Source: Candidatus Tayloriibacteriota bacterium
Lineage (GTDB): Bacteria; Patescibacteriota; Minisyncoccia; Phycocordibacterales; PALSA-1337
NCBI GenBank assembly: GCA_025353045.1
Contig: JANXRK010000065.1
Coordinates: 1-36,831 of the forward strand
DNA length: 36,831 nt
Reading direction: 5' to 3'
The notes beneath the pieces were generated by a model. The model searched no databases. It saw only the letters and a list, made by a program, of their open reading frames with translations, and was not told the DNA's origin. The position numbers were made by a program, and so were the translations under genes. Below, one piece after another: positions 3,367-31,534 of the stretch. Position 1 is the stretch's first letter. Each line of letters starts with the position of its first letter.

Positions 3367-3443
3367 GATGGCACTACAATAGCACGAATGGCTTTAAAAC
3401 ACAAGCGATATATAGGGTTTTAATAAGATGATATACTGAAGAC

Positions 3444-10262: not shown

Positions 10263-10535
10263 TTATTTTACTGCGTCCTTTAGTCCCTTTGCTGCTCGGA
10301 ACTTTGGAACCTTCATGGCTGGAACCTTGATAGCCTCACCTGTTCGAGGGTTTCGAGCGTCTCGTGCCGCTCGTTCCTTTACTGAGAAGATACCAAGTCC
10401 TGCGATAGAAACTTCCTCACCCTTCTTGAGAGAGTCGATTATTGAGTTTACTACAATGTCTACTGCTTGCTCTGCTTGTACCTTTGTTCCTCCAAGCATT
10501 GCATGTACTGCATCTACGATTCCTGCTTTATTCAT
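10263..10535 (-). CDS. hup: HU-family DNA-binding protein
   Basis: The 90-aa ORF contains MNKAGIVDAV ... GLGIFSVKERAARDARNPRTGEAIKVPAMKVPKFRAAKGLKDAV, the canonical HU beta-arm. Confidence 0.92.
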   Translation of the reverse strand: MNKAGIVDAVHAMLGGTKVQAEQAVDIVVNSIIDSLKKGEEVSIAGLGIFSVKERAARDARNPRTGEAIKVPAMKVPKFRAAKGLKDAVK

Positions 10536-20013: not shown

Positions 20014-21297
20014 ATGAACATTAAAAAACTTTTTATAAAGATATCTTTTACATTATTCGTCGTAGCATTCTATTTTTTGGCGATAACTTCTCAAGTTAAA
20101 GCTGGTCCATTAAAACCTGTCGACGTCACCGGTTGGGCTTGGTCATCAAATGTCGGTTGGATTAGTTTTAATTGTATAAATACAGGTACATGCGGAACTG
20201 TATCGTATGGTGTGAAGCTTGCAACATCAACTTCAGATGCATTAGCTGGAACTCTTTCTGGTTATGCTTGGTCTTCAAATGTAGGTTGGATCGAGTTCGC
20301 TGGGGATACTTCTCTAGGTTTTCCTAGCCCTACTATTGACTTAGATAAAGGTGGGGTCTCTGGATATATTCGTGTTTGCTCTGGAACTATTCCTCCACCC
20401 AGTCCACCCACAACCACACATTGTAGTACAAATGCGTCTCGTACAGATGGCTGGGACGGATGGGCAAAGCTTTCAGAGTCACCACTGTATTCAACTAGAC
20501 AGAATGGTGGTGATAAGGGGGTTACGTACATTACGAGTGACGGATCCTTCGTTGGGTACGCTTGGGGAGGGGAAAATATCGGTTGGCTCCAGTTCAATGC
20601 AAGTTCTACATCAGGAAATGTCAAATGTCCTAGCTGTACAAATAACCCACCATCCACATTTACACCTTCATGTACTATTCCTTCAACTGTATCATACACA
20701 GCACCTGCAACATCAGGAACAGTGGCAGTAAGTGCAAGTTCTTTTGATGGATCAGCGTCATATACATTCTCAATACCAGTACTAACAAATATGCCAGTAG
20801 GACCGTATACATCACCAAGTATTCAAGTTACTGATAGTAGTAGTCCGACAAAGATAGGAAATATGGTTTGTAGTACAACGGTGGTGAATGGAAGTCCAGT
20901 CCCGCCGGGGGTTAGTATGTGGACGATGCAAAATCAAGCATCGACAGATAAAACAAAATTCTTGGTGGCAATAAAATTAGGACAAGATGCGTATGTAAAT
21001 TGGGAAGCAGTTGGAGGGATGACGTATGATGTGAATGCATGCGTTGCTCGTCTAGTGGATCCATCTAGCGCTTCATCAGTTCTATCGGGACTAAACTCTC
21101 AGCCCGTAAATGGATATTATAAGATTCCTGCATCGGCACTTACGTCAAAAGGTGATTATAAGTATAGTATGAGATGTACTGATACAAATTCAGCAGATAC
21201 AACCTTCGGACTCCCTGTCAGTGCAAAATCTACTGATCCAAATTCTCCACTGAGTTTGACAATAAAGGTAAAAGATCCTAAAGAAATAGAAAAATAA
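20014..21297 (+). CDS. secreted protein with three Trp-rich G(W/Y)AW(S/G)xN(V/I)GW(I/L)xF repeats
   Basis: It has a signal/TM segment, ISFTLFVVAFYFLAITSQVKA. The repeats are GWAWSSNVGWISF (nt 20131-20169), GYAWSSNVGWIEF (20260-20298) and GYAWGGENIGWLQF (20554-20595). The C-terminal half is Ser/Thr/Pro-rich. Confidence 0.6.
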   Translation: MNIKKLFIKISFTLFVVAFYFLAITSQVKAGPLKPVDVTGWAWSSNVGWISFNCINTGTCGTVSYGVKLATSTSDALAGTLSGYAWSSNVGWIEFAGDTSLGFPSPTIDLDKGGVSGYIRVCSGTIPPPSPPTTTHCSTNASRTDGWDGWAKLSESPLYSTRQNGGDKGVTYITSDGSFVGYAWGGENIGWLQFNASSTSGNVKCPSCTNNPPSTFTPSCTIPSTVSYTAPATSGTVAVSASSFDGSASYTFSIPVLTNMPVGPYTSPSIQVTDSSSPTKIGNMVCSTTVVNGSPVPPGVSMWTMQNQASTDKTKFLVAIKLGQDAYVNWEAVGGMTYDVNACVARLVDPSSASSVLSGLNSQPVNGYYKIPASALTSKGDYKYSMRCTDTNSADTTFGLPVSAKSTDPNSPLSLTIKVKDPKEIEK

Positions 21298-21355: not shown

Positions 21356-22342
21356 TCATTCCACCAGCCGGAGCCGGTAGAAGAGATGTGATCGTGCCGT
21401 GGACTTGTCCGTGAAGGACTGCACTCCTGCCGGTGTGACCGGGAAGCGTCCGTTTGGAAAATCAATCCAGTTGACCAGGTCCGAAGACATCTGGTACTGG
21501 ACGAACATTCCAACCATCCCACCATGGCCCCTGAGGAGGGCTTGCGGTGATGGGGGAGGTTCCACAGAAGACTTCTTCCCATCCGCGTCCACAGGTGGAT
21601 AGAGGACGAGAGAGAGGGAGAGCGGAGGGACTTCGAGCTCCTGGCCTTGTTCGAAGGCTTGGAAAACCAGGTCACCGGTGCTGCTGCTTGAGAGGGTCCG
21701 GATTTGGATTGTGACGTCCTTATCCAAGACGAGCTCTGTTGCAATGAACACGTACGAGATGCCCGAGCGATGGATGATCTCCACAACCTTGGCGTTTTCG
21801 GTGGTCTGATTTGAGTCGGTGTTGAAGATGACGTCGTCACCCCTCGAAGCCGTCACGCCAATCCACTTGAGGTGGTTGAAGGTGTGCCCGATACGTCGGG
21901 GGAATTCCATCTTCACCCCAGACAAGTCCGGTAGAGTGTAACCAGCCGCCATTTTCACGAGGCTAAATTGCACACCCGGGACCTGAAAGTAGTTGATGAT
22001 TCCATCCTCATCGTGGTCGTCCCAGTAATACTGAAGGGCGAAGGCGACAATAGAGTAGGGCAGACTTCTGTCTTGACCTGCCACCTCTGTCGTGACCACT
22101 CTCAGTGCAGCCTTGTGAAGCTGCGACTGGAAAAACGATTCCAGCTCCGCCCGGTTGCTAACTCTGACGTTTGCAACCTCTTGGAGCAAGACTCGGTCTC
22201 CTTGCTTGAGAAAGATATCCAACTCCCTGACTTGCGCCAGCGAGTCCTTCTCCAAGCTGCCTCCCGTAGGGAAGGCCGTGATCTGCGCTTGCACCCCAAC
22301 AAAGGAGATGAGCGCAAACACGATTGCGTAGAACGCTTTCAT
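21356..22342 (-). CDS. secreted hypothetical protein encoded on a GC-rich island
   Basis: I prefer the Met at 22342, where GGAG lies 9 nt upstream. This gives the signal peptide MKAFYAIVFALISFVGVQAQ. The C-terminus is ...QMSSDLVNWIDFPNG...SHLFYRLRLVE. G+C is 36/60 in line 21361-21420 and 31/60 in 21901-21960, against 14/60 in flanking line 22441-22500. Confidence 0.6.
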   Translation of the reverse strand: MKAFYAIVFALISFVGVQAQITAFPTGGSLEKDSLAQVRELDIFLKQGDRVLLQEVANVRVSNRAELESFFQSQLHKAALRVVTTEVAGQDRSLPYSIVAFALQYYWDDHDEDGIINYFQVPGVQFSLVKMAAGYTLPDLSGVKMEFPRRIGHTFNHLKWIGVTASRGDDVIFNTDSNQTTENAKVVEIIHRSGISYVFIATELVLDKDVTIQIRTLSSSSTGDLVFQAFEQGQELEVPPLSLSLVLYPPVDADGKKSSVEPPPSPQALLRGHGGMVGMFVQYQMSSDLVNWIDFPNGRFPVTPAGVQSFTDKSTARSHLFYRLRLVE

Positions 22343-22428
22343 GATTGTAATCTCCGATGTGGCCTGTTGGCCGAGTTTACTGTTCCGAAAAATCTTCTGT
22401 AGCACGTCGAAGTGCTGTTACTGTTAGT

Positions 22429-22437
22429 ATTATACCA
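22429..22437 (-). promoter_or_regulatory. extended -10 element TGgTATAAT (minus strand) upstream of the GC-rich gene
   Basis: The + strand reads ATTATACCA. It lies in the AT-rich flank about 87 nt upstream of the ATG at 22342. Confidence 0.4.
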
Positions 22438-22471
22438 TAAAATACATATAAAAGTAAAGCAAATTAGGATC

Positions 22472-22480
22472 TGTGGATAA
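22472..22480 (-). promoter_or_regulatory. perfect DnaA-box 9-mer (TGTGGATAA on +)
   Basis: Exact 9-mer, intergenic, between the kinase stop (22495) and the promoter of the GC-rich gene. Confidence 0.4.
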
Positions 22481-22494
22481 GTACTTTAAAACAC

Positions 22495-24252
22495 TTATTT
22501 TACAAGGCTTTTTAGAAAATCAAAAGGGATGGTAATTATAACCCTTGCACCCATATTTTCTCCTTCTGAATTTATAGTCAGACTACCATGATGGGCTTCC
22601 ACGATCGATCTCGATACAGATAAGCCAATTCCCATACCGGTCGGATTTTTATTCTGAACTCTTTTGCTTCTGTAAAATGTTTTTTCAAATAAATTATTTT
22701 TTTCTTCCGTCGTAATTCCAACCCCTGTATTCTTAATTGTTATTTTAAATTGATCGTCATCAAATTCCGTCTCTATTTTTATGCTTCCTTCTGATGTATT
22801 GTAACGAATAGCATTTTCTATGATTACTAAAAGAACTTCTCGTATTTTGTTTGCATCGACTTTTATTTCCGGCCAATCAGCGATGTCTTTGAGGTAAGTG
22901 ACTGACAGATCCATGCTCGTTATGTCTATTTCTAGTTCCTTTAGGATTTTTTCTAGTGAAGGAAGCAGACTTAATTTTGATAAATTTAATATTTGCGATC
23001 CTGTTTTCATCTTAGCAATATTTTTGAAATCATCAGCAATGTCTGTTAAGTGTTGGACGGAAACCAGAGCCTCTTCTAAAGTTTTTTGTGCGTCAGTTTC
23101 AATCTTTACATATTTTCCAGAAATTATTTCATTGAGTCTATTATTTATATTCGTGATCGGCACTCTTAAATTGTGTTGAGCGATACTTATGAAAGTATCC
23201 TTTGTTTCACTCAACTTTTCGAGCTCTCTTCGGGCTTTTTTCTCTAATTCAAATGACTTGTTAATTTCTTGTGTTTGTTCAGCCACCTTGTCAGAGAGAG
23301 AAGAATTGAAAGATTTGAGAGATAGAGCAAGCGATTCGATTTTTTCGAGGTTGTCTTGTTCTTGTTTTCCGATTTGAATAAGAAGAATGCCAAGGATTAT
23401 TGAGATGATAAAAGTAATTATGGTAATAATGTGACTTGTATTTGCGTCTGTGATGGTAATGAGAGAGCCGATGAGAATCCATAGAGTAAAAACTAGGAGA
23501 TTCCGGTTGACGAGTTTGAGGTTGAAGAGATTGAATTTGATAGTGCTATAAATAAGGAAAATAAGAAATACGGGCATACCTAGTAAACCTAACTCTCCTA
23601 ATTTCCAGTCATTCGTGAAACTTCCAACCATATTGCCACAACTAAACGCAAGCAAAAATAACACTATACCTAAGGATAAAAGAACGACCTTCTTCTTATT
23701 GATTGGATTTTTACTCTCAATAAATTGCTTTGAAACGTAAAATATAATCCAACAAGTATATATAATCTCGATTATATAGCTATAATAAAGCGCAACTGGT
23801 CCCTCGACACTCATGCAAGTAATTATATTAAATCCTGACAGCGTTAACCTGCTAGGTAAAAAAACTAATATGGGGAGATATAATATTGCCAACGTTAGCT
23901 TTTGATAAAAAGAAATATCTCTTTCCTCAATTAGTACTTGAATTAAATAAAGCCCCCCAATGTAAATTAGCGGTTCAACTAATAAGGTAAATGCCCAGAC
24001 TGTCATTATGATGTCACCTCTGTCGCATGCCCAAAAAACTAGAGAAAATATTACCCATAAACTAAAAGGAATGAGAATTATGAGTAAGATCTGATTTGAT
24101 AATACTTTCCTACCTTTAATAATAATAAGTAAAGCAATTGTTATGCTGATAATAATCAGGGGTAAGTGGGAGTACAGTACTAGAGCCGGTATGTCTTTAG
24201 TTGCATTAAAATATCCGGTATTTGTCATGCTACATTGGGATAAATTTTCCAT
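22495..24252 (-). CDS. sensor histidine kinase with an N-terminal 7-TM (HisKA_7TM-like) domain
   Basis: It has about seven TM helices, a coiled coil, the H-box FISIAQHNLRVPIT and the HATPase_c blocks NAIRYN, IKNTGVGI and GMGIGLSVSRSIV. It is colinear with the kinase at 26443..28104. Confidence 0.85.
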   Translation of the reverse strand: MENLSQCSMTNTGYFNATKDIPALVLYSHLPLIIISITIALLIIIKGRKVLSNQILLIILIPFSLWVIFSLVFWACDRGDIIMTVWAFTLLVEPLIYIGGLYLIQVLIEERDISFYQKLTLAILYLPILVFLPSRLTLSGFNIITCMSVEGPVALYYSYIIEIIYTCWIIFYVSKQFIESKNPINKKKVVLLSLGIVLFLLAFSCGNMVGSFTNDWKLGELGLLGMPVFLIFLIYSTIKFNLFNLKLVNRNLLVFTLWILIGSLITITDANTSHIITIITFIISIILGILLIQIGKQEQDNLEKIESLALSLKSFNSSLSDKVAEQTQEINKSFELEKKARRELEKLSETKDTFISIAQHNLRVPITNINNRLNEIISGKYVKIETDAQKTLEEALVSVQHLTDIADDFKNIAKMKTGSQILNLSKLSLLPSLEKILKELEIDITSMDLSVTYLKDIADWPEIKVDANKIREVLLVIIENAIRYNTSEGSIKIETEFDDDQFKITIKNTGVGITTEEKNNLFEKTFYRSKRVQNKNPTGMGIGLSVSRSIVEAHHGSLTINSEGENMGARVIITIPFDFLKSLVK

Positions 24253-24336
24253 AGTCTATTAGATAGAATTTTGTCTTGTAAAACAAGAAGATTGTAGCAT
24301 ATTCCAGATTTTGTTTTATGGGGTATAATGTAGTCT

Positions 24337-24471
24337 ATGGATAAAAAATCTAAAATTCTGATAATAGTTTTTTTAGTTGCTATGTTTATTTCAGCATCCG
24401 TTACTTTTTATAGATATATGGTGGTAAAGGATTTTAAGGTAATTGACTCGACACAGCTAAAAAATAATTAA
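24337..24471 (+). CDS. possible 44-aa single-TM mini-protein
   Basis: Hand translation gives MDKKSKILIIVFLVAMFISASVTFYRYMVVKDFKVIDSTQLKNN. TATAAT lies at 24324-24329. The stop is 1 nt before the ATG at 24473. It is too short for the ORF track. Confidence 0.3.
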   Translation: MDKKSKILIIVFLVAMFISASVTFYRYMVVKDFKVIDSTQLKNN

Positions 24472-24472
24472 A

Positions 24473-25063
24473 ATGTATTCAGACAATTTAAATATACTAG
24501 GAATCGTAGCAGGTTTATTATCAATGGTATCCTTTATTGTCTATTATATTTCTATTTTTCGTAGAAAAACGATTCCCAATAAGACAACATGGTTTATATT
24601 GACCATTGTTGGTATTCTTATAGCTTCTAGTTATTATGCAGTAGGAGCAAGAGAGACTATATGGGTTCCGATTGTGTATATAATTGGTCCTTTTATAACG
24701 TTTATACTTTCTCTCAAATTTGGCCAAGGAGGATGGTCATCGTTTGATAAAATTTGCTTAATTTTATCTATCGTAAGTATTATTGTTTGGATGATCTCAG
24801 GTTATCCATTATTGACTCTGTTGATAAATATTTTTATTGATCTACTTGGAATACTCCCTACAGTTAGGAAGACCTATTTAAATCCTAACAGCGAAGATTT
24901 ACTTACTTGGTTGCTTGTCGTTATAGAGAGCATCCTGAACTTGTTTGCAATAAGAGAGTGGGTTTTTGGAATATATGTTTATCCTGTATATATGTTGGTC
25001 TTTAATGGATTGATATTATTCCTTATTTTGCTACCGAAATTAAAGAACATGCTTAAAGGATGA
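24473..25063 (+). CDS. 7-TM membrane protein, possibly PQ-loop/SWEET-like
   Basis: Seven hydrophobic helices are present. The loops after TM1 (YYISIFRRKT) and TM5 (LGILPTVRKTYLNPNSEDLL) resemble PQ-loop motifs, but with PT rather than PQ. The family call is weak. Confidence 0.5.
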   Translation: MYSDNLNILGIVAGLLSMVSFIVYYISIFRRKTIPNKTTWFILTIVGILIASSYYAVGARETIWVPIVYIIGPFITFILSLKFGQGGWSSFDKICLILSIVSIIVWMISGYPLLTLLINIFIDLLGILPTVRKTYLNPNSEDLLTWLLVVIESILNLFAIREWVFGIYVYPVYMLVFNGLILFLILLPKLKNMLKG

Positions 25064-25441
25064 TTTCTTTATCCCTCGTCTTTTAAACCAACCCTTTTCG
25101 TAGTCTTCATAGTCACATGTTAATTCCTCTCCAATATGAATATCTTTTTTCGCTATATCTCTGTCTGGTTTCGACTGAATATTTGGTTTTTTAGAATAGT
25201 TAATAAATCTTTGATCATCGCAACAAAGTATGTACTTCTTCAGTTTAAAGTCGAGATAGAGATAATCTAAAAATCTTTCACGGAAACTTTCTGGTAGTAT
25301 ATCTATACATTCTTGAGTGAAGCAGGTATCGTATTCAGGATCGTACTTCCACGTGATTGTTCCCTTTGGAATAAATTCCGCTGCGAATAGCCCTATTCCA
25401 TGCGTGGAACTCTTGTCTAATTTTGTTTTTACTAGTAACAT
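25040..25441 (-). CDS. minimal SET-domain protein (putative protein-lysine methyltransferase)
   Basis: The 133-aa ORF has HGIGLFAAEFIPKGTITW (GxG motif), RFINYSKKPN (NHSxxPN-like) and IGEELTCDYEDY (ELxxDY). Confidence 0.75.
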   Translation of the reverse strand: MLLVKTKLDKSSTHGIGLFAAEFIPKGTITWKYDPEYDTCFTQECIDILPESFRERFLDYLYLDFKLKKYILCCDDQRFINYSKKPNIQSKPDRDIAKKDIHIGEELTCDYEDYEKGWFKRRGIKKSSFKHVL

Positions 25442-26429
25442 GGTGAAATACTATCACATATTCATGACATTAGAAAATGACATAATTAACAGATTATATG
25501 ATGAGGTTTTAATCTTTTGTAAAAAAGAAGGTCTCGTCGATCAATTACAAAAAAGCTTGGTCGTACCAGAGGGAGATAGATTTTCTAATCGAGAAATTGA
25601 TAATACAGGGTTGGACGTCCTAGATGCTGTCCATTGTCTTGTGGATAAGAAAAGAACAATAATGCTTCTTGCCGCTGTGTATGAGCAAACTACAAAAGGA
25701 AATGTTGTTATCGAGGCAGGCTTGGGGACAGGTATTCTTTCTTTTATGGCTAACTTAAGAGGAGCTAAAGTTTATGGATTTGAAATTAACCCATCGGTCT
25801 ACGAGCTTGCAAATAAGATAAAGAAGCATCTTATTGAAAAAAGAATTATCACGAACGATATTGAGTTTATTAAAGCTGACGCTAGAAATATAAAGCTAGA
25901 AGTGAAGGCTGATATCATTATTAGTGAAAATATTTATACTGGCATGTTTTTTGAAAAACAGATAGACATAGTCTCTGGTCTATTGCCTTACTTAAAGAAA
26001 AAAGGCCACTTAATTCCTTGTGGTATGAAAAGCTCATTCCTTTTGTCTTATATTGATTTTCCAAAAAGAATAGCGTCTAAAAAATTTCATGTCTTATCGG
26101 AAATCAATGTCCAACCTAAGTACTTAACAGATCAGATCATATATGATCTACTTTCTTTTGCGGGTGTGAAAAAGAGCGGGGTTCAATTCAAAAAAGAGAT
26201 AAAACTTAATAGAAATGGTGAAATAAATTCAATTTTAGTCTGTAGTGATGTGTCGTTGCCTAGCGGTAAAGTAATAGATAGATTTGATACGGAATTTATG
26301 AATAACGACGTCGTCTTTTTTCTCGGCAATCCTTTTTTTGTTAAAAAAGGAGACAGGGTTAATGTAGAGATTTGCTATCTCTACGGATCAAATCCAGAAG
26401 AGGCTTATATTTCTGTGAAGAAGTTGTGA
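25440..26429 (+). CDS. PRMT-like class I SAM-dependent methyltransferase (putative protein-arginine methyltransferase)
   Basis: Motif I is VVIEAGLGTGILSFMA and post-I is KVYGFEINP. ADIIISENIYTGMFFEKQ compares with the PRMT double-E loop DIIISEWMGYxLxYES. LKKKGHLIPC compares with PRMT LAPDGLIFP. The C-terminal half has beta-barrel length. The start could be ATG 25440, which shares CATG with the SET start, or ATG 25464. Confidence 0.65.
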   Translation: MVKYYHIFMTLENDIINRLYDEVLIFCKKEGLVDQLQKSLVVPEGDRFSNREIDNTGLDVLDAVHCLVDKKRTIMLLAAVYEQTTKGNVVIEAGLGTGILSFMANLRGAKVYGFEINPSVYELANKIKKHLIEKRIITNDIEFIKADARNIKLEVKADIIISENIYTGMFFEKQIDIVSGLLPYLKKKGHLIPCGMKSSFLLSYIDFPKRIASKKFHVLSEINVQPKYLTDQIIYDLLSFAGVKKSGVQFKKEIKLNRNGEINSILVCSDVSLPSGKVIDRFDTEFMNNDVVFFLGNPFFVKKGDRVNVEICYLYGSNPEEAYISVKKL

Positions 26430-26442
26430 TATAATTAACAGT

Positions 26443-28104
26443 ATGAACTTTCCAGCGCTCTGTAATTTTCCAGGACCTCAATACCTGGTAATTTCTGAAA
26501 ACGTTCCTCCTCTTGTGTATTATTCACATCTGCCAATAGCACTAATCTCCCTCCTAATCGGTTCATATGTGTTTTTGAAAAATCGCAAAGCACTCGCAAA
26601 CCAAATAATTTTAGTGACGACATTAGCCTTTTCACTTTGGGTTTTCCTCGACTCAGTCTTTTGGGCTAGTGATAGAAGTGACGTCATTATGTTTGTCTGG
26701 GCGATGCAGGTCTTGGTCGAGCCGCTTGTTCATCTAAGTGCTCTTTATTTGTTGTATGTATTACTTTATAAAAAAGATACATCTTTTCTCTCTAAGTCAG
26801 TTTTGTTAGCTATCTATTTGCCGCTTGTTGTTCTTATTCCAACAAAGTATATCCTAACTTCGTTCGATATTGGAACATGTTTAAGTCAGGAGGCAGTTTA
26901 CTCGTATTATTCATATGTTATTGAGATTGTTTATACAATAACACTTGTGATTGTTGGTACTAAAAGGTTTATTTCTGAAAAAAATAAACAAACTAAAAAA
27001 GAAATTGTTTATTTAACTGCAGGTATGATTGTATTACTTTTTGCATTTTCCTGGGGAGCGATTACAGGGAGTTTTACTGAAGATTGGAATTTTGCGCAGT
27101 ATGGACTCTTCGGAATGCCCGTATTTTTGGCATTTCTTTCGTATACGATTGTGAAATTTAAATCTTTTAACCTCAAACTCATCGGCTCTAATGTTTTGGT
27201 GATCTCGCTGTGGATATTGGTTGGATCGCTTCTTGCTATTGAGGATATCAACATTAGTCATGCTGTTACCGGTATCACCCTCATCATTTCCATCATCTTC
27301 GGTCTTATTCTTATCCAATCCGTCCGCAAGGAAGTGAGCCAGCGTGAAAAGATCGAGAAGCTTGCTGGTGATCTTAAGGTTGCCAACACTCGCCTCCTTG
27401 AACTTGATAAACAAAAATCTGAATTCGTTTCTTTTGCCACTCACCAGCTCCGCGCGCCTCTGACTGCTATGAAAGGTTACGCCTCACTCATTCTCGAAGG
27501 AGAAATGGGGCAGACCACTCCGGAGACTAAGCAGGCAATTAGTCGTATCTTCGAATCTTCAAAGACACTTACTACGATTGTGGATGATTATCTCAATATT
27601 TCTCGAATTGAGCTTGGTACTATGAAGTATAGCTTCGATATGCTTGATCTTAAGCAAATGGTTGAGAATGTTATTGGCGAACTTAAGCCTAATATTGATA
27701 AAAAAGGTCTCAAGCTGTCATTTAACGCTGATGCCTCTGCTCGGTTTATGATTCATGCTGATAAAGATAAGCTCAAGCAGGTTATCGCTAATCTTATCGA
27801 CAATTCAGTTAAGTACACTCCTTCGGGATCTATTGCTATAGCTTTGATGCGAAAGAGTGCTGATAGGAAAATCCTATTCTCAATCAAAGATACTGGCGTT
27901 GGTATTGCTCCTGAGGTTATGCCAAAGCTTTTTGCCAAGTTCGTACGGGCTGAGAATGCCAATAAGCAGAATATTTATGGAACTGGTCTCGGACTTTTCG
28001 TGGCAAAGGATATCGTCACTGCACATAAAGGTAAACTTTGGGCTGAATCTGCTGGTGAGGGGAAGGGTTCAACGTTTTTCATGGAATTGGACATGGAGGT
28101 GTAG
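26443..28104 (+). CDS. sensor histidine kinase with an N-terminal 7-TM (HisKA_7TM-like) domain
   Basis: It has a 7-TM N-terminus (PPLVYYSHLP...), the H-box FVSFATHQLRAPLTAMKGY and the N, G1 and G2 boxes NLIDNSVKYT, IKDTGVGI and GTGLGLFVAKDIV. It starts 13 nt after the methyltransferase stop. Confidence 0.9.
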   Translation: MNFPALCNFPGPQYLVISENVPPLVYYSHLPIALISLLIGSYVFLKNRKALANQIILVTTLAFSLWVFLDSVFWASDRSDVIMFVWAMQVLVEPLVHLSALYLLYVLLYKKDTSFLSKSVLLAIYLPLVVLIPTKYILTSFDIGTCLSQEAVYSYYSYVIEIVYTITLVIVGTKRFISEKNKQTKKEIVYLTAGMIVLLFAFSWGAITGSFTEDWNFAQYGLFGMPVFLAFLSYTIVKFKSFNLKLIGSNVLVISLWILVGSLLAIEDINISHAVTGITLIISIIFGLILIQSVRKEVSQREKIEKLAGDLKVANTRLLELDKQKSEFVSFATHQLRAPLTAMKGYASLILEGEMGQTTPETKQAISRIFESSKTLTTIVDDYLNISRIELGTMKYSFDMLDLKQMVENVIGELKPNIDKKGLKLSFNADASARFMIHADKDKLKQVIANLIDNSVKYTPSGSIAIALMRKSADRKILFSIKDTGVGIAPEVMPKLFAKFVRAENANKQNIYGTGLGLFVAKDIVTAHKGKLWAESAGEGKGSTFFMELDMEV

Positions 28105-28133
28105 GTTTTCTCACGGGGGTTAAAAAACATACA

Positions 28134-29012
28134 ATGAGAGTAAAAATCTTAAAGAGAATAAATTGTATAAGATTGAAGGGTTCAGGGTTTTTTGAAAAAG
28201 ATGAGGTTCAGTATAGTGATAAAATTTCTGAAGTCTGGAACGAACCAATACAAATTAGTATTGATATAATTAGGCAATTAATCAAAAAACAGTTAGTTTC
28301 AGTTTATTTGAGGGGATCAGTTGAAAATAATACGCAAATTAGTCACATTTCTGATATTGACTTAGTTATTATATTTTCTAAAAGCATTTCTTTGGTGGTG
28401 AGGAATAAGTTACAAAGGCGGCTAGATGTTGTGAGGAAAGATTATCCTTTCGTCAGCAAAGTTGACCTCATGTATATTAATATTTTGGATATTAAATCAA
28501 CTTCCAAAAGAGTTCTTGTAAAGCTAACATCAAGATGTGTTTTTGGGTCGTCAGTTGAGAGGTTGATACCAAATTTACAAGCAGGTAATGACATTGCAGT
28601 TACCCTTAATACGCTTAAGGCGGATCTGCACAGTTTTCTTGGTAGTAATAAATATTCTTCAAAAGAAAAATGCACCTGGATGATGAAAAAGATATTAAGG
28701 TCAGGGGCTGAACTTGTCTCCGAACGATCAGGATTATATATTAGAGACTTGTACTGCTGTTATAAAGTTTTTATTAAGTTTTACCCTAAATATAGAAAAG
28801 AAATGTATGAATGTTTAAAGTTAGCCATCGCACCATGTGGAAAAACAAAAAAAGTTAGAGAACTTGTTGTACACACCACTTCCTTTTTGATGAATGAGTC
28901 TGTGAGACTTAATATAATAAACAACAACCCCAGAGCGGGGTTGTCTCGAGTGACTGGTCACAAGGTCGCCTCTGCTAGTAACCGTTCGGTTGTAACGAGG
29001 GGAGTGCTTTGA
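28134..29012 (+). CDS. Pol-beta-superfamily nucleotidyltransferase, ANT/AadA-like architecture
   Basis: The NTase motif is VYLRGSVENNTQISHISDIDLVIIF, with the third carboxylate in SKVDLMYI, followed by a helical C-terminal domain. The last ~27 aa (PRAGLSRVTGHKVASASNRSVVTRGVL) are encoded antisense to the neighbouring GC-rich gene. Confidence 0.6.
   Translation: MRVKILKRINCIRLKGSGFFEKDEVQYSDKISEVWNEPIQISIDIIRQLIKKQLVSVYLRGSVENNTQISHISDIDLVIIFSKSISLVVRNKLQRRLDVVRKDYPFVSKVDLMYINILDIKSTSKRVLVKLTSRCVFGSSVERLIPNLQAGNDIAVTLNTLKADLHSFLGSNKYSSKEKCTWMMKKILRSGAELVSERSGLYIRDLYCCYKVFIKFYPKYRKEMYECLKLAIAPCGKTKKVRELVVHTTSFLMNESVRLNIINNNPRAGLSRVTGHKVASASNRSVVTRGVL
28924..28944 (-). terminator. hairpin terminator of the GluRS-like gene, lying inside the 3' coding end of the NTase gene
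   Basis: The + strand reads AACAACCCC-agagc-GGGGTTGT. On the minus strand it is followed by TGTTTATTATATT. Confidence 0.5.
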
Positions 29013-30070
29013 CGAATCTTTTTGTAGACTTTGGAAATGGCATCTCGCTCAAGCATGTTCGATGCTGTGGCGAAAGAGACGCGTTCAGGTTTTTCAGAGG
29101 TGTTTTGTTGGTATCTTATCCTTGTATTTTTTGCGACTACCACATCACCTTCACAAAACACACTTTCAAGGCGGGTCTGCTGGTTACTCATGAGTAACGC
29201 AACTCCCCAATCTTTTACTGATACACCATGTTTATCTTCCAGGAAGGGTGTTCTTGGTAATTTCATCACTGGATTTTGGAATTTTATCCCAGGATGAATG
29301 AAAAGATGGACTTTCACATGCGGAAATAGAGTGGAGCTTATAGCAATAGCTCGACAGACTTGGGTTAAGGTCGTAAAGCCAACGACCAACCCCACCTCAT
29401 TGATTTTAAATTTATGTGCCAGAAAGTAGGGGAATATTCCTAGTGCACAATCAGGATCAAGAACTAAACCATCTAACAAAAGATCGCCTTGTTCTGGATT
29501 CCTGAGTTTCGTTATAATGAGCTGGTGCCTAGTAATCTCCCCATAGACTGTTGAGAATCTTCGTGCCTGAACTGATGGCGTGCAAAAAATATCTAGTTTA
29601 CCTAAAGCTGTAATCGCTCGTACTTCACTTTCTGCCGTCTCAATCATTCCGTGGCATCTTGTACAGACTTTGTCGGTGAAGTTATGACCTCTTCTTTGTA
29701 CCCCAATTACATTCAGCGCGCTCGTTGGAAGTTCTACAACCCCACACGTACAGCGTGAAAGGTTAATCGTCGCTCGCTGGGTTTTTCCTAACAGTGATTG
29801 CGTGACAAAATTTTGGAAATCACTATCAAGATCGGTTGCTATATCACACTCCTCAGTCGTGACACCAACCGCAGTCAAATCATGCCCGAAGTAGTTGACG
29901 ATTCTTTCGGGGTTGTTGGGTAGGGTGTTGCGTTGAAGTCCAAGAAGGTTAATTGGTAGAATAAGTCTTGATCCAGTAAGTCTTGCGAGTGTTTTGGCAG
30001 TGAGAATGGTTGAGAAGACTTTAAGACTTCTACCATGCCGATAACTTATCGGTAAAGTGGTAATGATCAT
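28958..30070 (-). CDS. diverged class Ib aminoacyl-tRNA-synthetase catalytic-core paralog (GluRS/GluQ-RS-like), without an anticodon-binding domain
   Basis: It is colinear by eye with GluRS/YadB as I remember them. The beta-loop-helix start is MIITTLPISYRHGRSL (HIGH region degenerate). LQRNTLPNNPERIV compares with LERSTPEAIEAI. FQNFVTQSLLGK..RCTCG ... CTRCHG compares with the CxC...C(R)H zinc knuckle. VGFTTLTQVCRAIAI compares with RGxDxxxxTxRQI. PVMKLPRT compares with KLSKR. G+C is elevated: 31/60 in line 29701-29760. Confidence 0.45.
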   Translation of the reverse strand: MIITTLPISYRHGRSLKVFSTILTAKTLARLTGSRLILPINLLGLQRNTLPNNPERIVNYFGHDLTAVGVTTEECDIATDLDSDFQNFVTQSLLGKTQRATINLSRCTCGVVELPTSALNVIGVQRRGHNFTDKVCTRCHGMIETAESEVRAITALGKLDIFCTPSVQARRFSTVYGEITRHQLIITKLRNPEQGDLLLDGLVLDPDCALGIFPYFLAHKFKINEVGLVVGFTTLTQVCRAIAISSTLFPHVKVHLFIHPGIKFQNPVMKLPRTPFLEDKHGVSVKDWGVALLMSNQQTRLESVFCEGDVVVAKNTRIRYQQNTSEKPERVSFATASNMLERDAISKVYKKIRQSTPLVTTERLLAEATL

Positions 30071-30121
30071 GGCGGTCCTGTGGCGGTTGTATTTTCAATG
30101 GTCTTTCCGTACTATATCATC

Positions 30122-30817
30122 ATGAAGACGGAAATCAAACACATTGAAATTTCCAAGCTAGTACTTAAGTATTTCGGGGTAGCTAGAGTTGTGTGTGTTG
30201 TTACTTATGGCTCATCGATAGATGAAGTTGGAAAAAAACCTGCAGATATTGATATTTTTATTTTACTTAAAAAATTTGATATAATGGATTTTACAGTTGG
30301 TTCAGTGCTTAAAAAAAGATTGCCTTCAGTATCGATATTTGTTGATTATGAGGATTCAATTATAAAGAAAGGGATAAATAATTATCAATTTGGTAGACAT
30401 GGTGTCTATTTCATAAAGATTCTTGAAAATGGTATTTGTTTATATGGTAAAAACAAATATATACAATGGTCAAAATTAGTTACAAACAAAAAAATAAAGT
30501 TAGATTTAAGATATAGAATCGATGAATATTTTTATAGGATATATAGAGAGATTACGGATAGAGCAGATTTGGACGTTATTAGAAAATATTTATGCAGAAT
30601 AATTATTGATATATTACTATACGAAAACAAAATTACATTCCCCGAGGTATCACAAGTACATTATCTACGTTTGATTCAAAATTATCTTACTTATAATAAA
30701 GATATACGTGAAGATTTATTCACTTCTATTATTAATATTAAATATAAAAATAGTGACCATTATTTATCTAGTTTGATTAATGAGTTGTACAAGATTTATT
30801 TAAAAATATATAATTAG
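30122..30817 (+). CDS. Pol-beta-superfamily nucleotidyltransferase (second copy)
   Basis: VVTYGSSIDEVGKKPADIDIFILL is the GS...DxD motif, with the third carboxylate in SIFVDYED, followed by a helical C-terminal half. I prefer the ATG at 30122 (MKTEIKH) to the GTG at 30080. Confidence 0.55.
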   Translation: MKTEIKHIEISKLVLKYFGVARVVCVVTYGSSIDEVGKKPADIDIFILLKKFDIMDFTVGSVLKKRLPSVSIFVDYEDSIIKKGINNYQFGRHGVYFIKILENGICLYGKNKYIQWSKLVTNKKIKLDLRYRIDEYFYRIYREITDRADLDVIRKYLCRIIIDILLYENKITFPEVSQVHYLRLIQNYLTYNKDIREDLFTSIINIKYKNSDHYLSSLINELYKIYLKIYN

Positions 30818-30820
30818 TAT

Positions 30821-31534
30821 ATGTCAATAATATATCATGGAGACCTCGCTTTTGAACTTTTTGAAGTCGCTCAAAAAAAAGGTACCATTATTCTAGCGGA
30901 TGGTTTACCTGGAAATCCAATATCTAAAAAGGAGTCGATAGCTGAATGGAACAGAAGAGGTTATGATATTGTGTTTCCACGCTACCTAGGATCATGGGAG
31001 TCTAAAGGAAGATTTTTAGAACATCCTCCACAACATGATTTTGAAATTTTAATTGACGCACTTAGTAAGGGAATAAATAATGTAGATAAAGTTTATATCG
31101 CAAAAAAAATATATTTACTTGGAACAAGCTTTGGTGGGGGGGTCATTATGTCAATAAAAGATGATACAAATATTGATAAAATATGCGCACTTTCTCCAAC
31201 TATCACTTATAGAGGTATTCCAGATATCAATACCCTAGCTTCATATTTGCAAACAAAATATCCAGGAAGCTATCGTTTTAAGGTATCTGATTTTGATAAA
31301 TTATTAAATGACGAAATTTCTTCACCAGTAAACAAATTCAGTCTTCCATCAAGTAAGGTCATGATTTTGGCTGGGGAACAAGACAATCAGATATCAATTA
31401 CTGAGTTGAGATCCTTTGCCACGCAAAAATCAATTAAACTAATCTCAGATCCTCAAGTTGGACATATCACCTTGTCTAAACTCAAAGTAGAACATTACGA
31501 TCAAATAGACACTTTCTTTTTGGGTCAAAACTGA
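30821..31534 (+). CDS. alpha/beta-fold hydrolase (dienelactone hydrolase / S9-like)
   Basis: The nucleophile elbow is LLGTSFGGG (GxSxG). The acid is in LAGEQDNQI and the His in VGHITL. It starts 3 nt after the NTase stop. Confidence 0.65.
   Translation: MSIIYHGDLAFELFEVAQKKGTIILADGLPGNPISKKESIAEWNRRGYDIVFPRYLGSWESKGRFLEHPPQHDFEILIDALSKGINNVDKVYIAKKIYLLGTSFGGGVIMSIKDDTNIDKICALSPTITYRGIPDINTLASYLQTKYPGSYRFKVSDFDKLLNDEISSPVNKFSLPSSKVMILAGEQDNQISITELRSFATQKSIKLISDPQVGHITLSKLKVEHYDQIDTFFLGQN

Follow-up and report, generated by a model that had tools for sequence, protein, structure and literature searches.

Positions 24,337 to 28,104 of a 36,831-nucleotide stretch of Candidatus Tayloriibacteriota DNA (contig JANXRK010000065.1; hereafter the window) encode a small membrane peptide, a seven-transmembrane (7-TM) protein, a minimal SET-domain methyltransferase, a methyltransferase of predicted protein arginine methyltransferase (PRMT) fold and a sensor histidine kinase. 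The association of such methyltransferases with this kinase family is not due to chance, as it is found at dozens of diverged loci, including rearranged ones. We tentatively favor, while holding it somewhat short of probable, a reading in which a membrane signaling module, conserved in Patescibacteria and specific to them, is represented here by one copy, with methyltransferases that would act on a protein or peptide of the pathway itself. The cassette and the kinase gene on its left are laid out as follows:

22495..24252, minus strand: paralogous sensor histidine kinase, 585 amino acids, with a predicted nine-transmembrane (9-TM) sensor domain; divergent from the peptide and 7-TM genes
24337..24471, plus strand: conserved single-pass membrane peptide, 44 amino acids, with one hydrophobic segment; small open reading frame (ORF) homologs in related loci
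24473..25063, plus strand: 7-TM protein, 196 amino acids, of predicted PQ-loop/SWEET/KDEL-receptor fold (AlphaFold and Foldseek); no Pfam or NCBIfam family
25040..25441, minus strand: minimal SET-domain methyltransferase, 133 amino acids (Pfam SET); convergent with the 7-TM gene
25442..25463, no strand: divergent 22-nucleotide spacer between the SET ATG and the favored PRMT-like ATG, read from the sequence
25464..26429, plus strand: S-adenosylmethionine (SAM)-dependent methyltransferase of predicted PRMT fold, 321 amino acids, or 329 if started at 25440 (PDB, Foldseek and hhalign)
26430..26442, plus strand: 13-nucleotide spacer TATAATTAACAGT ahead of the kinase gene, read from the sequence, with an extended -10 element
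26443..28104, plus strand: sensor histidine kinase, 553 amino acids, with a predicted 9-TM sensor (residues 1-296), HisKA with H334, and HATPase_c (Pfam and sensor alignment)

The strongest evidence for a functional unit comes from gene neighborhoods, for which gene models in the loci retrieved from other genomes are ORF-based. Around PRMT-like homologs in reference genomes, the order 7-TM (+), SET (-), PRMT-like (+) and kinase (+) recurs in nine loci. Elsewhere the same genes are rearranged: L003 has SET between the PRMT-like gene and the kinase, L035, L047 and L050 carry an inverted block, and SET is duplicated in L004 (in tandem) and L039; among loci found from the SET or 7-TM side, and without a PRMT-like gene, SET stands head-to-head with the kinase in L028, L030 and L031. 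Metagenome loci were sampled through the kinase sensor domain, from a single peptide search pattern, and the counts that follow refer to nonredundant kinase-centered loci with enough upstream sequence, the denominator being 34, 24 or 17 depending on the feature. The main SET family lies within 1.5 kb of the kinase in 24 of 34 loci, a second SET subtype near it in 2 of 34, and a methyltransferase resembling NNMT takes the place of SET in 4 of 34, such that at least one N-methyltransferase (SET in 26, NNMT-like in 4) accompanies the kinase in 30 of the 34; the other four comprise three distant-clade loci without a methyltransferase and one (L040) that ends at the PRMT-like gene. The PRMT-like gene itself is near the kinase in 6 of 34 loci, always together with SET or the NNMT-like gene where upstream sequence is available, the 7-TM gene in 16 of 24, and a SpeD/AdoMetDC-type decarboxylase gene in 7 of 17. 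Since the link between methyltransferase and kinase survives divergence of the sensor domain down to 41-75% identity, rearrangement and nonorthologous replacement of the methyltransferase, we take it to be functional. The small peptide, in turn, adjoins the 7-TM gene or directly precedes the kinase in nearly all related loci, including a distant clade that holds peptide and kinase alone, which makes these two the most constant pair. An earlier note, made from the sequence of the window, had described a module centered on the SET and PRMT-like genes: their linkage to the kinase is conserved, in the nine reference loci and in the metagenome loci, but the core is formed by peptide and kinase, with the PRMT-like gene present in just the 6 of 34.

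The region is well anchored in its host group. The same cassette sequence is found in NCBI assembly GCA_043763325.1 and in an independent Logan assembly of a public sequencing run, the names attached to homologs are those of Patescibacteria (e.g., Paceibacteria, Taylorbacteria, Nomurabacteria and Komeilibacteria), and the window, with a GC content of ~0.36, carries housekeeping genes of small-chromosome type (NusA, trigger factor, ClpP, RNase Y, HU, a Mur ligase and a type IV pilus). The coordinates and motifs quoted in the earlier note are all present in the sequence.

The kinase downstream of the PRMT-like gene matches the Pfam models HisKA (2.4e-15) and HATPase_c (1.2e-25), and its counterpart on the left matches HATPase_c (6.6e-22) and, weakly, HisKA (2.1e-3). 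The two align with each other at E 1e-120, with the N-terminal 300 residues of the left kinase scoring 289 bits against the sensor domain of the right one, in full agreement with the earlier proposal of a second, paralogous kinase and indicative of a common sensor domain; a second flanking kinase is also present in L001, L002, L027, L032, L035 and L047. Of 48 kinases, at least 90% keep the phospho-acceptor histidine, H334. From the hydropathy profile, together with loops that are alternately basic and acidic, nine transmembrane segments are predicted, with the N terminus outside, and C7, Y27, H29, W74, E93, C146, E150, Y155 and Y158 are invariant in the sensor-domain alignment. The predicted topology would place C7, Y27, H29, W74, R78, D80, C146, E150, Y155, Y158 and TEDW on the outer face and E93 in the third transmembrane segment. 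The previous assignment of the sensor to HisKA_7TM (PF16927) needs revision to a distant relationship: the window kinase yields no match to this model even at E up to 10, only 2 of 19 relatives do (best 3.2e-5), and the hydropathy profile supports nine segments and not seven. No receiver domain was detected among the window proteins scanned; in related loci a single-domain receiver adjoins the kinase only in L031, and another lies 3.6 kb away in L008.

The enzyme encoded immediately upstream is, on its predicted fold and its sequence, a member of a divergent prokaryotic branch of the PRMT fold. Its ORF contains VVIEAGLGTGILSFMA, ADIIISENIYTGMFFEKQ and LKKKGHLIPC, and a PDB sequence search returns almost exclusively PRMTs, with CARM1 first (5.2e-8) and PRMT8, 3, 1, 6, 2 and 9 after it; the alignment spans the D-x-x-R-T helix, motif I and both glutamates of the double-E loop, and also includes the LKxxG..P segment. 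Across 71 homologs, the double-E residues E155 and E164 (321-residue numbering), which align with the two glutamates of CARM1 and PRMT8, are invariant, as are the class I SAM-binding motifs VIEAGLGTGILS (the GxGxG motif I) and the glutamate of VYGFEIN, which align to the PRMT motifs, and D61 and R64, the latter equivalent to the arginine that binds the SAM carboxylate. Protein structures considered here are AlphaFold predictions. The model of this enzyme (mean predicted local distance difference test score, pLDDT, 91.4) places strands over residues 177-320 as a C-terminal β-barrel, apart from a short helical insert at residues 197-224 modeled with lower confidence. A dimerization arm and an N-terminal YFxxY helix, as in PRMTs, were looked for in this insert and in the N-terminal region, which aligns by hhalign only with a 9-residue insertion. 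The top 50 Foldseek neighbors of this model are all PRMTs (301-357 aligned columns, TM-score 0.60-0.72), the best being Trypanosoma brucei PRMT7 (E 1.9e-18, TM-score 0.72), and hhalign pairs the family with PRMT-type proteins over 255 columns, barrel included, at 99.8% probability (E 4e-30). What the family lacks is the THW loop: in the 71 homologs and by hhalign, a conserved DTxFLNND without His-Trp occupies the aligned position, which marks the enzyme as a divergent branch and not a canonical PRMT. Consistently, PRMT-specific Pfam models are not passed (PF05185, PRMT5, at E 0.029 and 14.7 bits against a cut-off of 22.9; PF22528 not reported), and Pfam and NCBIfam matches are to generic class I methyltransferases only. 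The PRMT motif set recognized earlier is hence borne out for the double-E glutamates, both matched in the PDB alignment, the barrel and the structural neighbors, the top 50 of which are PRMTs, but it does not extend to the THW loop or to the PRMT-specific profiles.

The PADLOC profile for mad2, a DNA methyltransferase of the MADS defense system (bioRxiv 10.1101/2023.03.30.534895), matches residues 76-224 at E 1.9e-14, better than any Pfam methyltransferase model, and some sources label homologs as predicted RNA methylases. That the 321-residue enzyme is a nucleic-acid (N6-adenine) methyltransferase instead of a PRMT-type one nevertheless strikes us as highly improbable: the mad2 match is limited to the Rossmann half, the motif-IV position reads S-E-N-I-Y and not (D/N/S)-P-P-(Y/F), the C-terminal β-barrel and double-E loop are hallmarks of PRMTs, and no other MADS or restriction components lie nearby. 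A defense system was rejected as well, the remaining matches of this kind being weak ones to PDC-M43B (in the kinase domain) and to a CBASS-cyclase-like protein (in a nucleotidyltransferase).

An exhaustive profile search collects 153 representatives of the PRMT-like family at E ≤1e-30 and 1,417 at E ≤1e-10, reaching DPANN archaea and Methanothrix. Ten longer relatives were scanned against Pfam, four of which are fused to an NNMT/PNMT/TEMT-like methyltransferase and one to a CxxCxxCC domain. In two Methanothrix loci, L014 (1724-6019) and L015 (8636-14404), the PRMT-like gene is followed by the gene for a kinase of ~1,095 residues, unrelated to the cassette kinase; the L015 copy, the only one of these scanned against Pfam, is a hybrid kinase with PAS, HisKA, HATPase_c and two receivers. 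A gene for a B12-binding radical SAM protein lies upstream of the PRMT-like gene in L015.

The 133-residue product of 25040-25441(-) passes the Pfam SET model (PF00856; E 2.4e-10, 41.2 bits against a cut-off of 22.4) over profile positions 1-104 of 105 and carries the motifs on which its earlier recognition as a minimal SET domain was based. It belongs to a family of at least 386 homologs of 126-166 residues in which N81, E106 and the catalytic-type Y111 are invariant and H82 is kept in at least 90%; its closest PDB sequence matches are weak (LegAS4, E 0.05-0.07). The second, longer SET subtype, with a canonical NHSCNP motif, replaces the minimal one in L029 (6590-7213), L037 (5261-5773) and L058 (150-680), where it is codirectional with the kinase and, in L029, bears a Cys-rich tail.

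The two membrane proteins at the start of the cassette both lack characterized relatives. The peptide, which the earlier note had missed, starts at the ATG at 24337 and reads MDKKSKILI...TFYRYMVVKDFKVID (44 residues), with its stop codon ending 1 nucleotide before the 7-TM ATG; its homologs are single-pass peptides of 37-46 residues. The 196-residue 7-TM protein, whose gene overlaps SET by exactly the 24 nucleotides noted previously (25040-25063), matches no Pfam or NCBIfam family, PQ-loop/MtN3 included, and its 47 homologs are all uncharacterized. Its AlphaFold model (pLDDT 95.7) consists of seven helices in a 3+1+3 arrangement, for which Foldseek returns cystinosin (1.4e-3), Arabidopsis cystinosin, SWEET13 and the KDEL receptor at TM-scores of 0.5-0.62; the top 13 matches are all cystinosin, SWEET or KDEL-receptor proteins with probabilities of 0.95-1.0, at marginal E-values (1e-3 to 0.1). 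The guess of a PQ-loop-like protein thus holds at the level of the predicted fold. The family has no PQ dipeptide motifs and instead conserves KTxPN and LPT(I/V)(K/R)K in its loops, the window copy having basic loops at residues 31-36 and 132-140. A possible common origin of the 7-TM protein and the sensor domain of the kinase was rejected (hhalign probability 0.2%). One homolog of 315 residues (P0251) was called as a fusion to TPR repeats on a 1.8-kb contig, a hint of protein-protein interaction or else a gene-calling artifact.

The compactness of the cassette had been taken to leave no space for internal promoters, with the SET and PRMT-like start codons sharing one CATG at 25439-25442. This CATG exists, but gene callers and homolog lengths favor the ATG at 25464 (P0001, 321 residues), which leaves a 22-nucleotide spacer in which weak -10-like hexamers of the two strands overlap (TACTAT on the plus strand and TGaTAGTAT on the minus strand); the corresponding divergent spacers in relatives measure 16-130 nucleotides. 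Similarly, the gaps of 13 nucleotides (26430-26442) and 29 nucleotides (28105-28133) on either side of the kinase gene have the lengths given before, but the operon that was read from them is weakened by an extended -10 element 7 nucleotides before the kinase ATG, formed by the TGA stop codon and TATAATTAACAGT, which together read TGATATAAT. TGnTATAAT ends 6-9 nucleotides before the kinase ATG in 13 of the 17 kinase genes preceded by a PRMT-like gene, the two genes overlapping by 1-4 nucleotides or being separated by 2-21 in relatives. A -10-like hexamer occurs at that position at 33% of kinase starts versus 4.5% of all ATG triplets, and the TG-extended form at 16% versus 0.6%. TATAAT also lies 7 nucleotides ahead of the peptide ATG, and across the window ~14 of 34 genes have a -10-like hexamer 4-8 nucleotides before the start (examples at 24324-24336, 26427-26442 and 3420-3443), as compared to a Shine-Dalgarno-like motif in 2 of 34. 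A generic scan of 22300-28400 for σ70 promoters and terminators was uninformative: it called 26 promoter-like sites where 24.2 were expected and placed no terminator within the cassette. Judging from these start-site patterns, leaderless transcription is probably widespread in this organism, each unit having its own start-proximal promoter; such promoters would account for the tight gene packing and remove the puzzle of the missing promoter space.

Individual promoters are one of several observations that would suit a loose coupling, in which SET and the PRMT-like enzyme methylate housekeeping proteins (HU, ribosomal proteins, EF-Tu or pilins) and their adjacency to the kinase reflects shared regulation or inherited synteny. 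SET proteins ~50% identical to that of the window are encoded by stand-alone genes in the cyanobacterium Microcoleus and the gammaproteobacterium Panacagrimonas, which suggests a widely available substrate, and the Go1-SET enzyme of the archaeon Methanosarcina methylates the chromatin protein MC1-α (PMC3980110). HU is encoded in the window at 10263-10535, and pilB, pilC and pilin genes lie downstream of the kinase in the window clade. Synteny alone, however, hardly explains a linkage that persists through 41-75% sensor identity, rearrangement and replacement; the HU gene is 15 kb distant and shows no linkage in other loci, and the pilB adjacency is limited to the close relatives L001, L002, L027 and L032. 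We therefore regard loose coupling as decidedly unlikely, and the earlier suggestion of HU or pilins as substrates gains no support: the pilus genes adjoin the kinase in close relatives only, and close SET homologs stand alone.

A more serious contender, which we consider possible though not likely, is a cluster devoted to the synthesis, transport and sensing of a methylated cationic amine. Here a SpeD-type decarboxylase would yield agmatine, putrescine or a similar compound, unless the amine is scavenged; SET or the NNMT-like enzyme would methylate its primary amino group and the PRMT-like enzyme a guanidino group; and the 7-TM protein would carry the product, to be sensed outside by the peptide-kinase pair, either for homeostasis or as an autoinducer-like signal. 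This proposal draws on the decarboxylase, the carrier fold, the NNMT-like replacements and fusions, and known cases in which free arginine or peptides are methylated by PRMT-like enzymes. The SpeD-type protein, of ~130 residues, matches PF02675 at ~1e-23 to 1e-27 in the seven loci that carry it; its pyruvoyl-forming E76-S77, H82 and C97 are invariant, it aligns to the Thermotoga maritima enzyme, and its gene, which overlaps or abuts the peptide or 7-TM gene in L005, L008 and L029, stays clustered through rearrangements. Some SpeD homologs from bacteria of the candidate phyla radiation decarboxylate ornithine or arginine (PMC10407285). An NNMT/PNMT/TEMT-like enzyme replaces both SET and the 7-TM gene beside the same kinase family in L009 (8979-9995), L042, L052, L054 and L060, and is fused to a PRMT-like domain in L011 (1556-3406) and in several database proteins. 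Bacterial PRMT relatives have been described as peptide or arginine methylases in secondary-metabolite operons (Aravind et al., PMC3417536), and SznE methylates free arginine (PMC11705231). The 7-TM fold matches cystinosin and SWEET carriers, and the outer face of the kinase is predicted to be rich in Asp/Glu and in Tyr/Trp/Phe. Against this, roughly half of the loci, the window among them, lack the decarboxylase gene and about a third the 7-TM gene, a content too variable for a fixed pathway; the fold matches extend to the KDEL receptor and have marginal E-values, and the substrate class of the SpeD homolog is not assignable from sequence. Moreover, we know of no SET-domain enzyme that acts on a small molecule. 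The most specific version, a self-contained circuit in which a SpeD-derived amine such as agmatine is methylated, exported by the PQ-loop-fold protein and sensed by an acidic and aromatic pocket of the kinase, appears to us unlikely, but if true it would provide both the first case of a SET-domain enzyme with a small-molecule substrate and the first description of an autoinducer-like system in Patescibacteria.

We favor, as said, a role for the methyltransferases within the signaling pathway, based on the known chemistry of the SET and PRMT folds and on the adjacency of PRMT-like and kinase genes, which is seen in Methanothrix as well. To our knowledge, proteins or peptides are the substrates of all characterized SET enzymes and of nearly all enzymes with a PRMT fold. 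Under this proposal, the kinase and small peptide would read an extracytoplasmic cationic cue, while SET and the PRMT-like enzyme would N-methylate Lys and Arg side chains of a pathway protein or peptide, candidate acceptors being the kinase, its response regulator or another partner. Methylation would set signaling strength, much like a CheR-type layer on the kinase but through N-methylation and with no linked eraser, and each unit would be transcribed, as leaderless mRNA, from a promoter of its own close to the start codon. The variable methyltransferase content fits modulators better than it does a fixed pathway. Of the signal-coupled Lys/Arg methylation module put forward in the earlier note, the folds or families of the four proteins and the linkage to the kinase are upheld, its protein acceptors being putative.

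Several observations speak against this proposal. The window SET protein has tyrosine in place of His82 (25196-25198), giving NYS instead of the family NHS motif, and the substitution is identical in two independent assemblies, which argues against an assembly error; the stand-alone genes of its ~50%-identical relatives count on the same side. Two substrate-site tests, both crude, were negative: no Arg column of the kinase tracks the presence of the PRMT-like gene, and the Lys/Arg positions of the peptide (N-terminal Lys, YYR/KDY) show no conservation across loci with SET or a PRMT-like gene. The peptide was dropped as a universal Lys/Arg substrate for this reason, and the kinase likewise gains no support as one, column tracking having returned a single weak Lys column, K421 (0.81 vs. 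0.28), which probably reflects phylogeny. The cassette neighborhood encodes neither a demethylase nor any other eraser. SET can be replaced by, and PRMT-like domains elsewhere fused to, members of the NNMT/PNMT/TEMT family, which is known for its action on small-molecule amines, and the presence of a decarboxylase and of a protein with a transporter fold gives the cluster a metabolic appearance. Finally, the conserved -10 element before the kinase weakens the case for cotranscription, and gene spacing alone does not identify an operon.

The cassette looks undescribed, though assembled from known kinds of parts. A literature search on SET, PRMT and kinase cassettes, SET proteins of Patescibacteria and bacterial PRMTs returned no description of the cassette or of the peptide, 7-TM or sensor-domain families; bacterial SET proteins (PMC3980110) and PRMT-like peptide methylases (PMC3417536) as such are already known. 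Four uncharacterized families are defined here: a PRMT-fold enzyme without the THW loop, a bacterial protein of predicted PQ-loop fold, a kinase-associated micropeptide and a 9-TM sensor domain. SET and PRMT enzymes write chromatin marks in eukaryotes and their prokaryotic roles are barely known, and the recurrent tie of both folds to one sensor-kinase family provides a setting in which to ask what they do in bacteria. The host group combines tiny genomes with few retained regulatory systems, and the cassette offers a testable entry into how symbiotic Patescibacteria sense their surroundings.

Beyond the cassette, four genes occupy 28134-31534, between the kinase and pilB: two nucleotidyltransferase-fold proteins (292 and 245 residues), the first with a weak CBASS-cyclase-like match (1.5e-5), a 237-residue hydrolase-like protein, and a 370-residue minus-strand ORF in a stretch of higher GC content (0.43). 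As pilB directly follows the kinase in the syntenic loci L027, L001, L002 and L032, this 3.4-kb segment is a strain-specific insertion, to which the gene 29 nucleotides past the kinase belongs; no convincing flanking repeats were found around it. To the left, 21356-22405(-) encodes a 349-residue ORF without a Pfam match in a 1-kb stretch of GC content 0.51 (against the ~0.36 of the window), with a similar gene at the same position in L027, and 20014-21297(+) encodes a 427-residue protein of no Pfam family that has a hydrophobic segment at its N terminus and in which the motif G[WY]AW[SG][SG][NE][VI]GW[IL]xF occurs three times.

Comparison with known systems sets the parts of the module in context. 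The PRMT-like enzyme shares with eukaryotic PRMTs (PRMT1/3/6/7/8 and CARM1) the predicted Rossmann and C-terminal β-barrel architecture, motif I, D-x-x-R, the double-E glutamates and LKxxG..P, but differs in its ~16-20% identity, DTxFLNND in place of THW, the 9-residue insertion, other N-terminal helices, and its kinase-linked genes in bacteria and archaea. It can also be set, by description and not by sequence, beside the PRMT-like methylases of secondary metabolism and SznE/StzE, likewise prokaryotic members of the PRMT radiation; those enzymes act on peptides or free arginine instead of histones and sit in nonribosomal peptide synthetase, oxygenase and N-nitrosourea clusters (PMC3417536, PMC11705231), whereas the window family sits with a sensor kinase, SET, the peptide and the 7-TM protein. 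The SET protein resembles the minimal enzymes vSET of chlorella virus and Go1-SET of Methanosarcina in its size (~120-135 residues), its lack of pre- and post-SET modules, its GxG and ELxxDY-type motifs and, at the level of the family, NH(S), but the window copy has NYS for NHS and its gene is tied to the kinase and convergent with the 7-TM gene. With the PQ-loop/SWEET/KDEL-receptor superfamily (cystinosin, PQLC2 and SWEETs), the 7-TM protein has the seven helices in common; it places basic, presumably cytoplasmic loops at the sites of the PQ motifs, with LPT(I/V)(K/R)K in their stead and no Pfam PQ-loop/MtN3 match. The SpeD-type homologs of the cluster keep the ES site, His and Cys of class 1b AdoMetDC/SpeD and of its neofunctionalized ornithine and arginine decarboxylases (PMC10407285), but stand beside the kinase and methyltransferases and not beside speE, hss or speY. 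At the level of the whole module, a parallel is adaptation by CheR/CheB, methyl-accepting chemotaxis proteins and CheA, where a SAM-dependent methyltransferase is also genetically coupled to histidine-kinase signaling; CheR, however, O-methylates glutamates on separate receptors and is paired with a dedicated esterase, while the window enzymes are of the SET and PRMT N-methyltransferase types and the kinase is itself the membrane sensor. The small peptide, finally, recalls MgrB or SafA with PhoQ in being a single-pass peptide of ~40 residues encoded with a membrane kinase on which it is predicted to act; it has no sequence relationship to either, and peptides of the window type are coinherited with their kinase across a phylum-level group.

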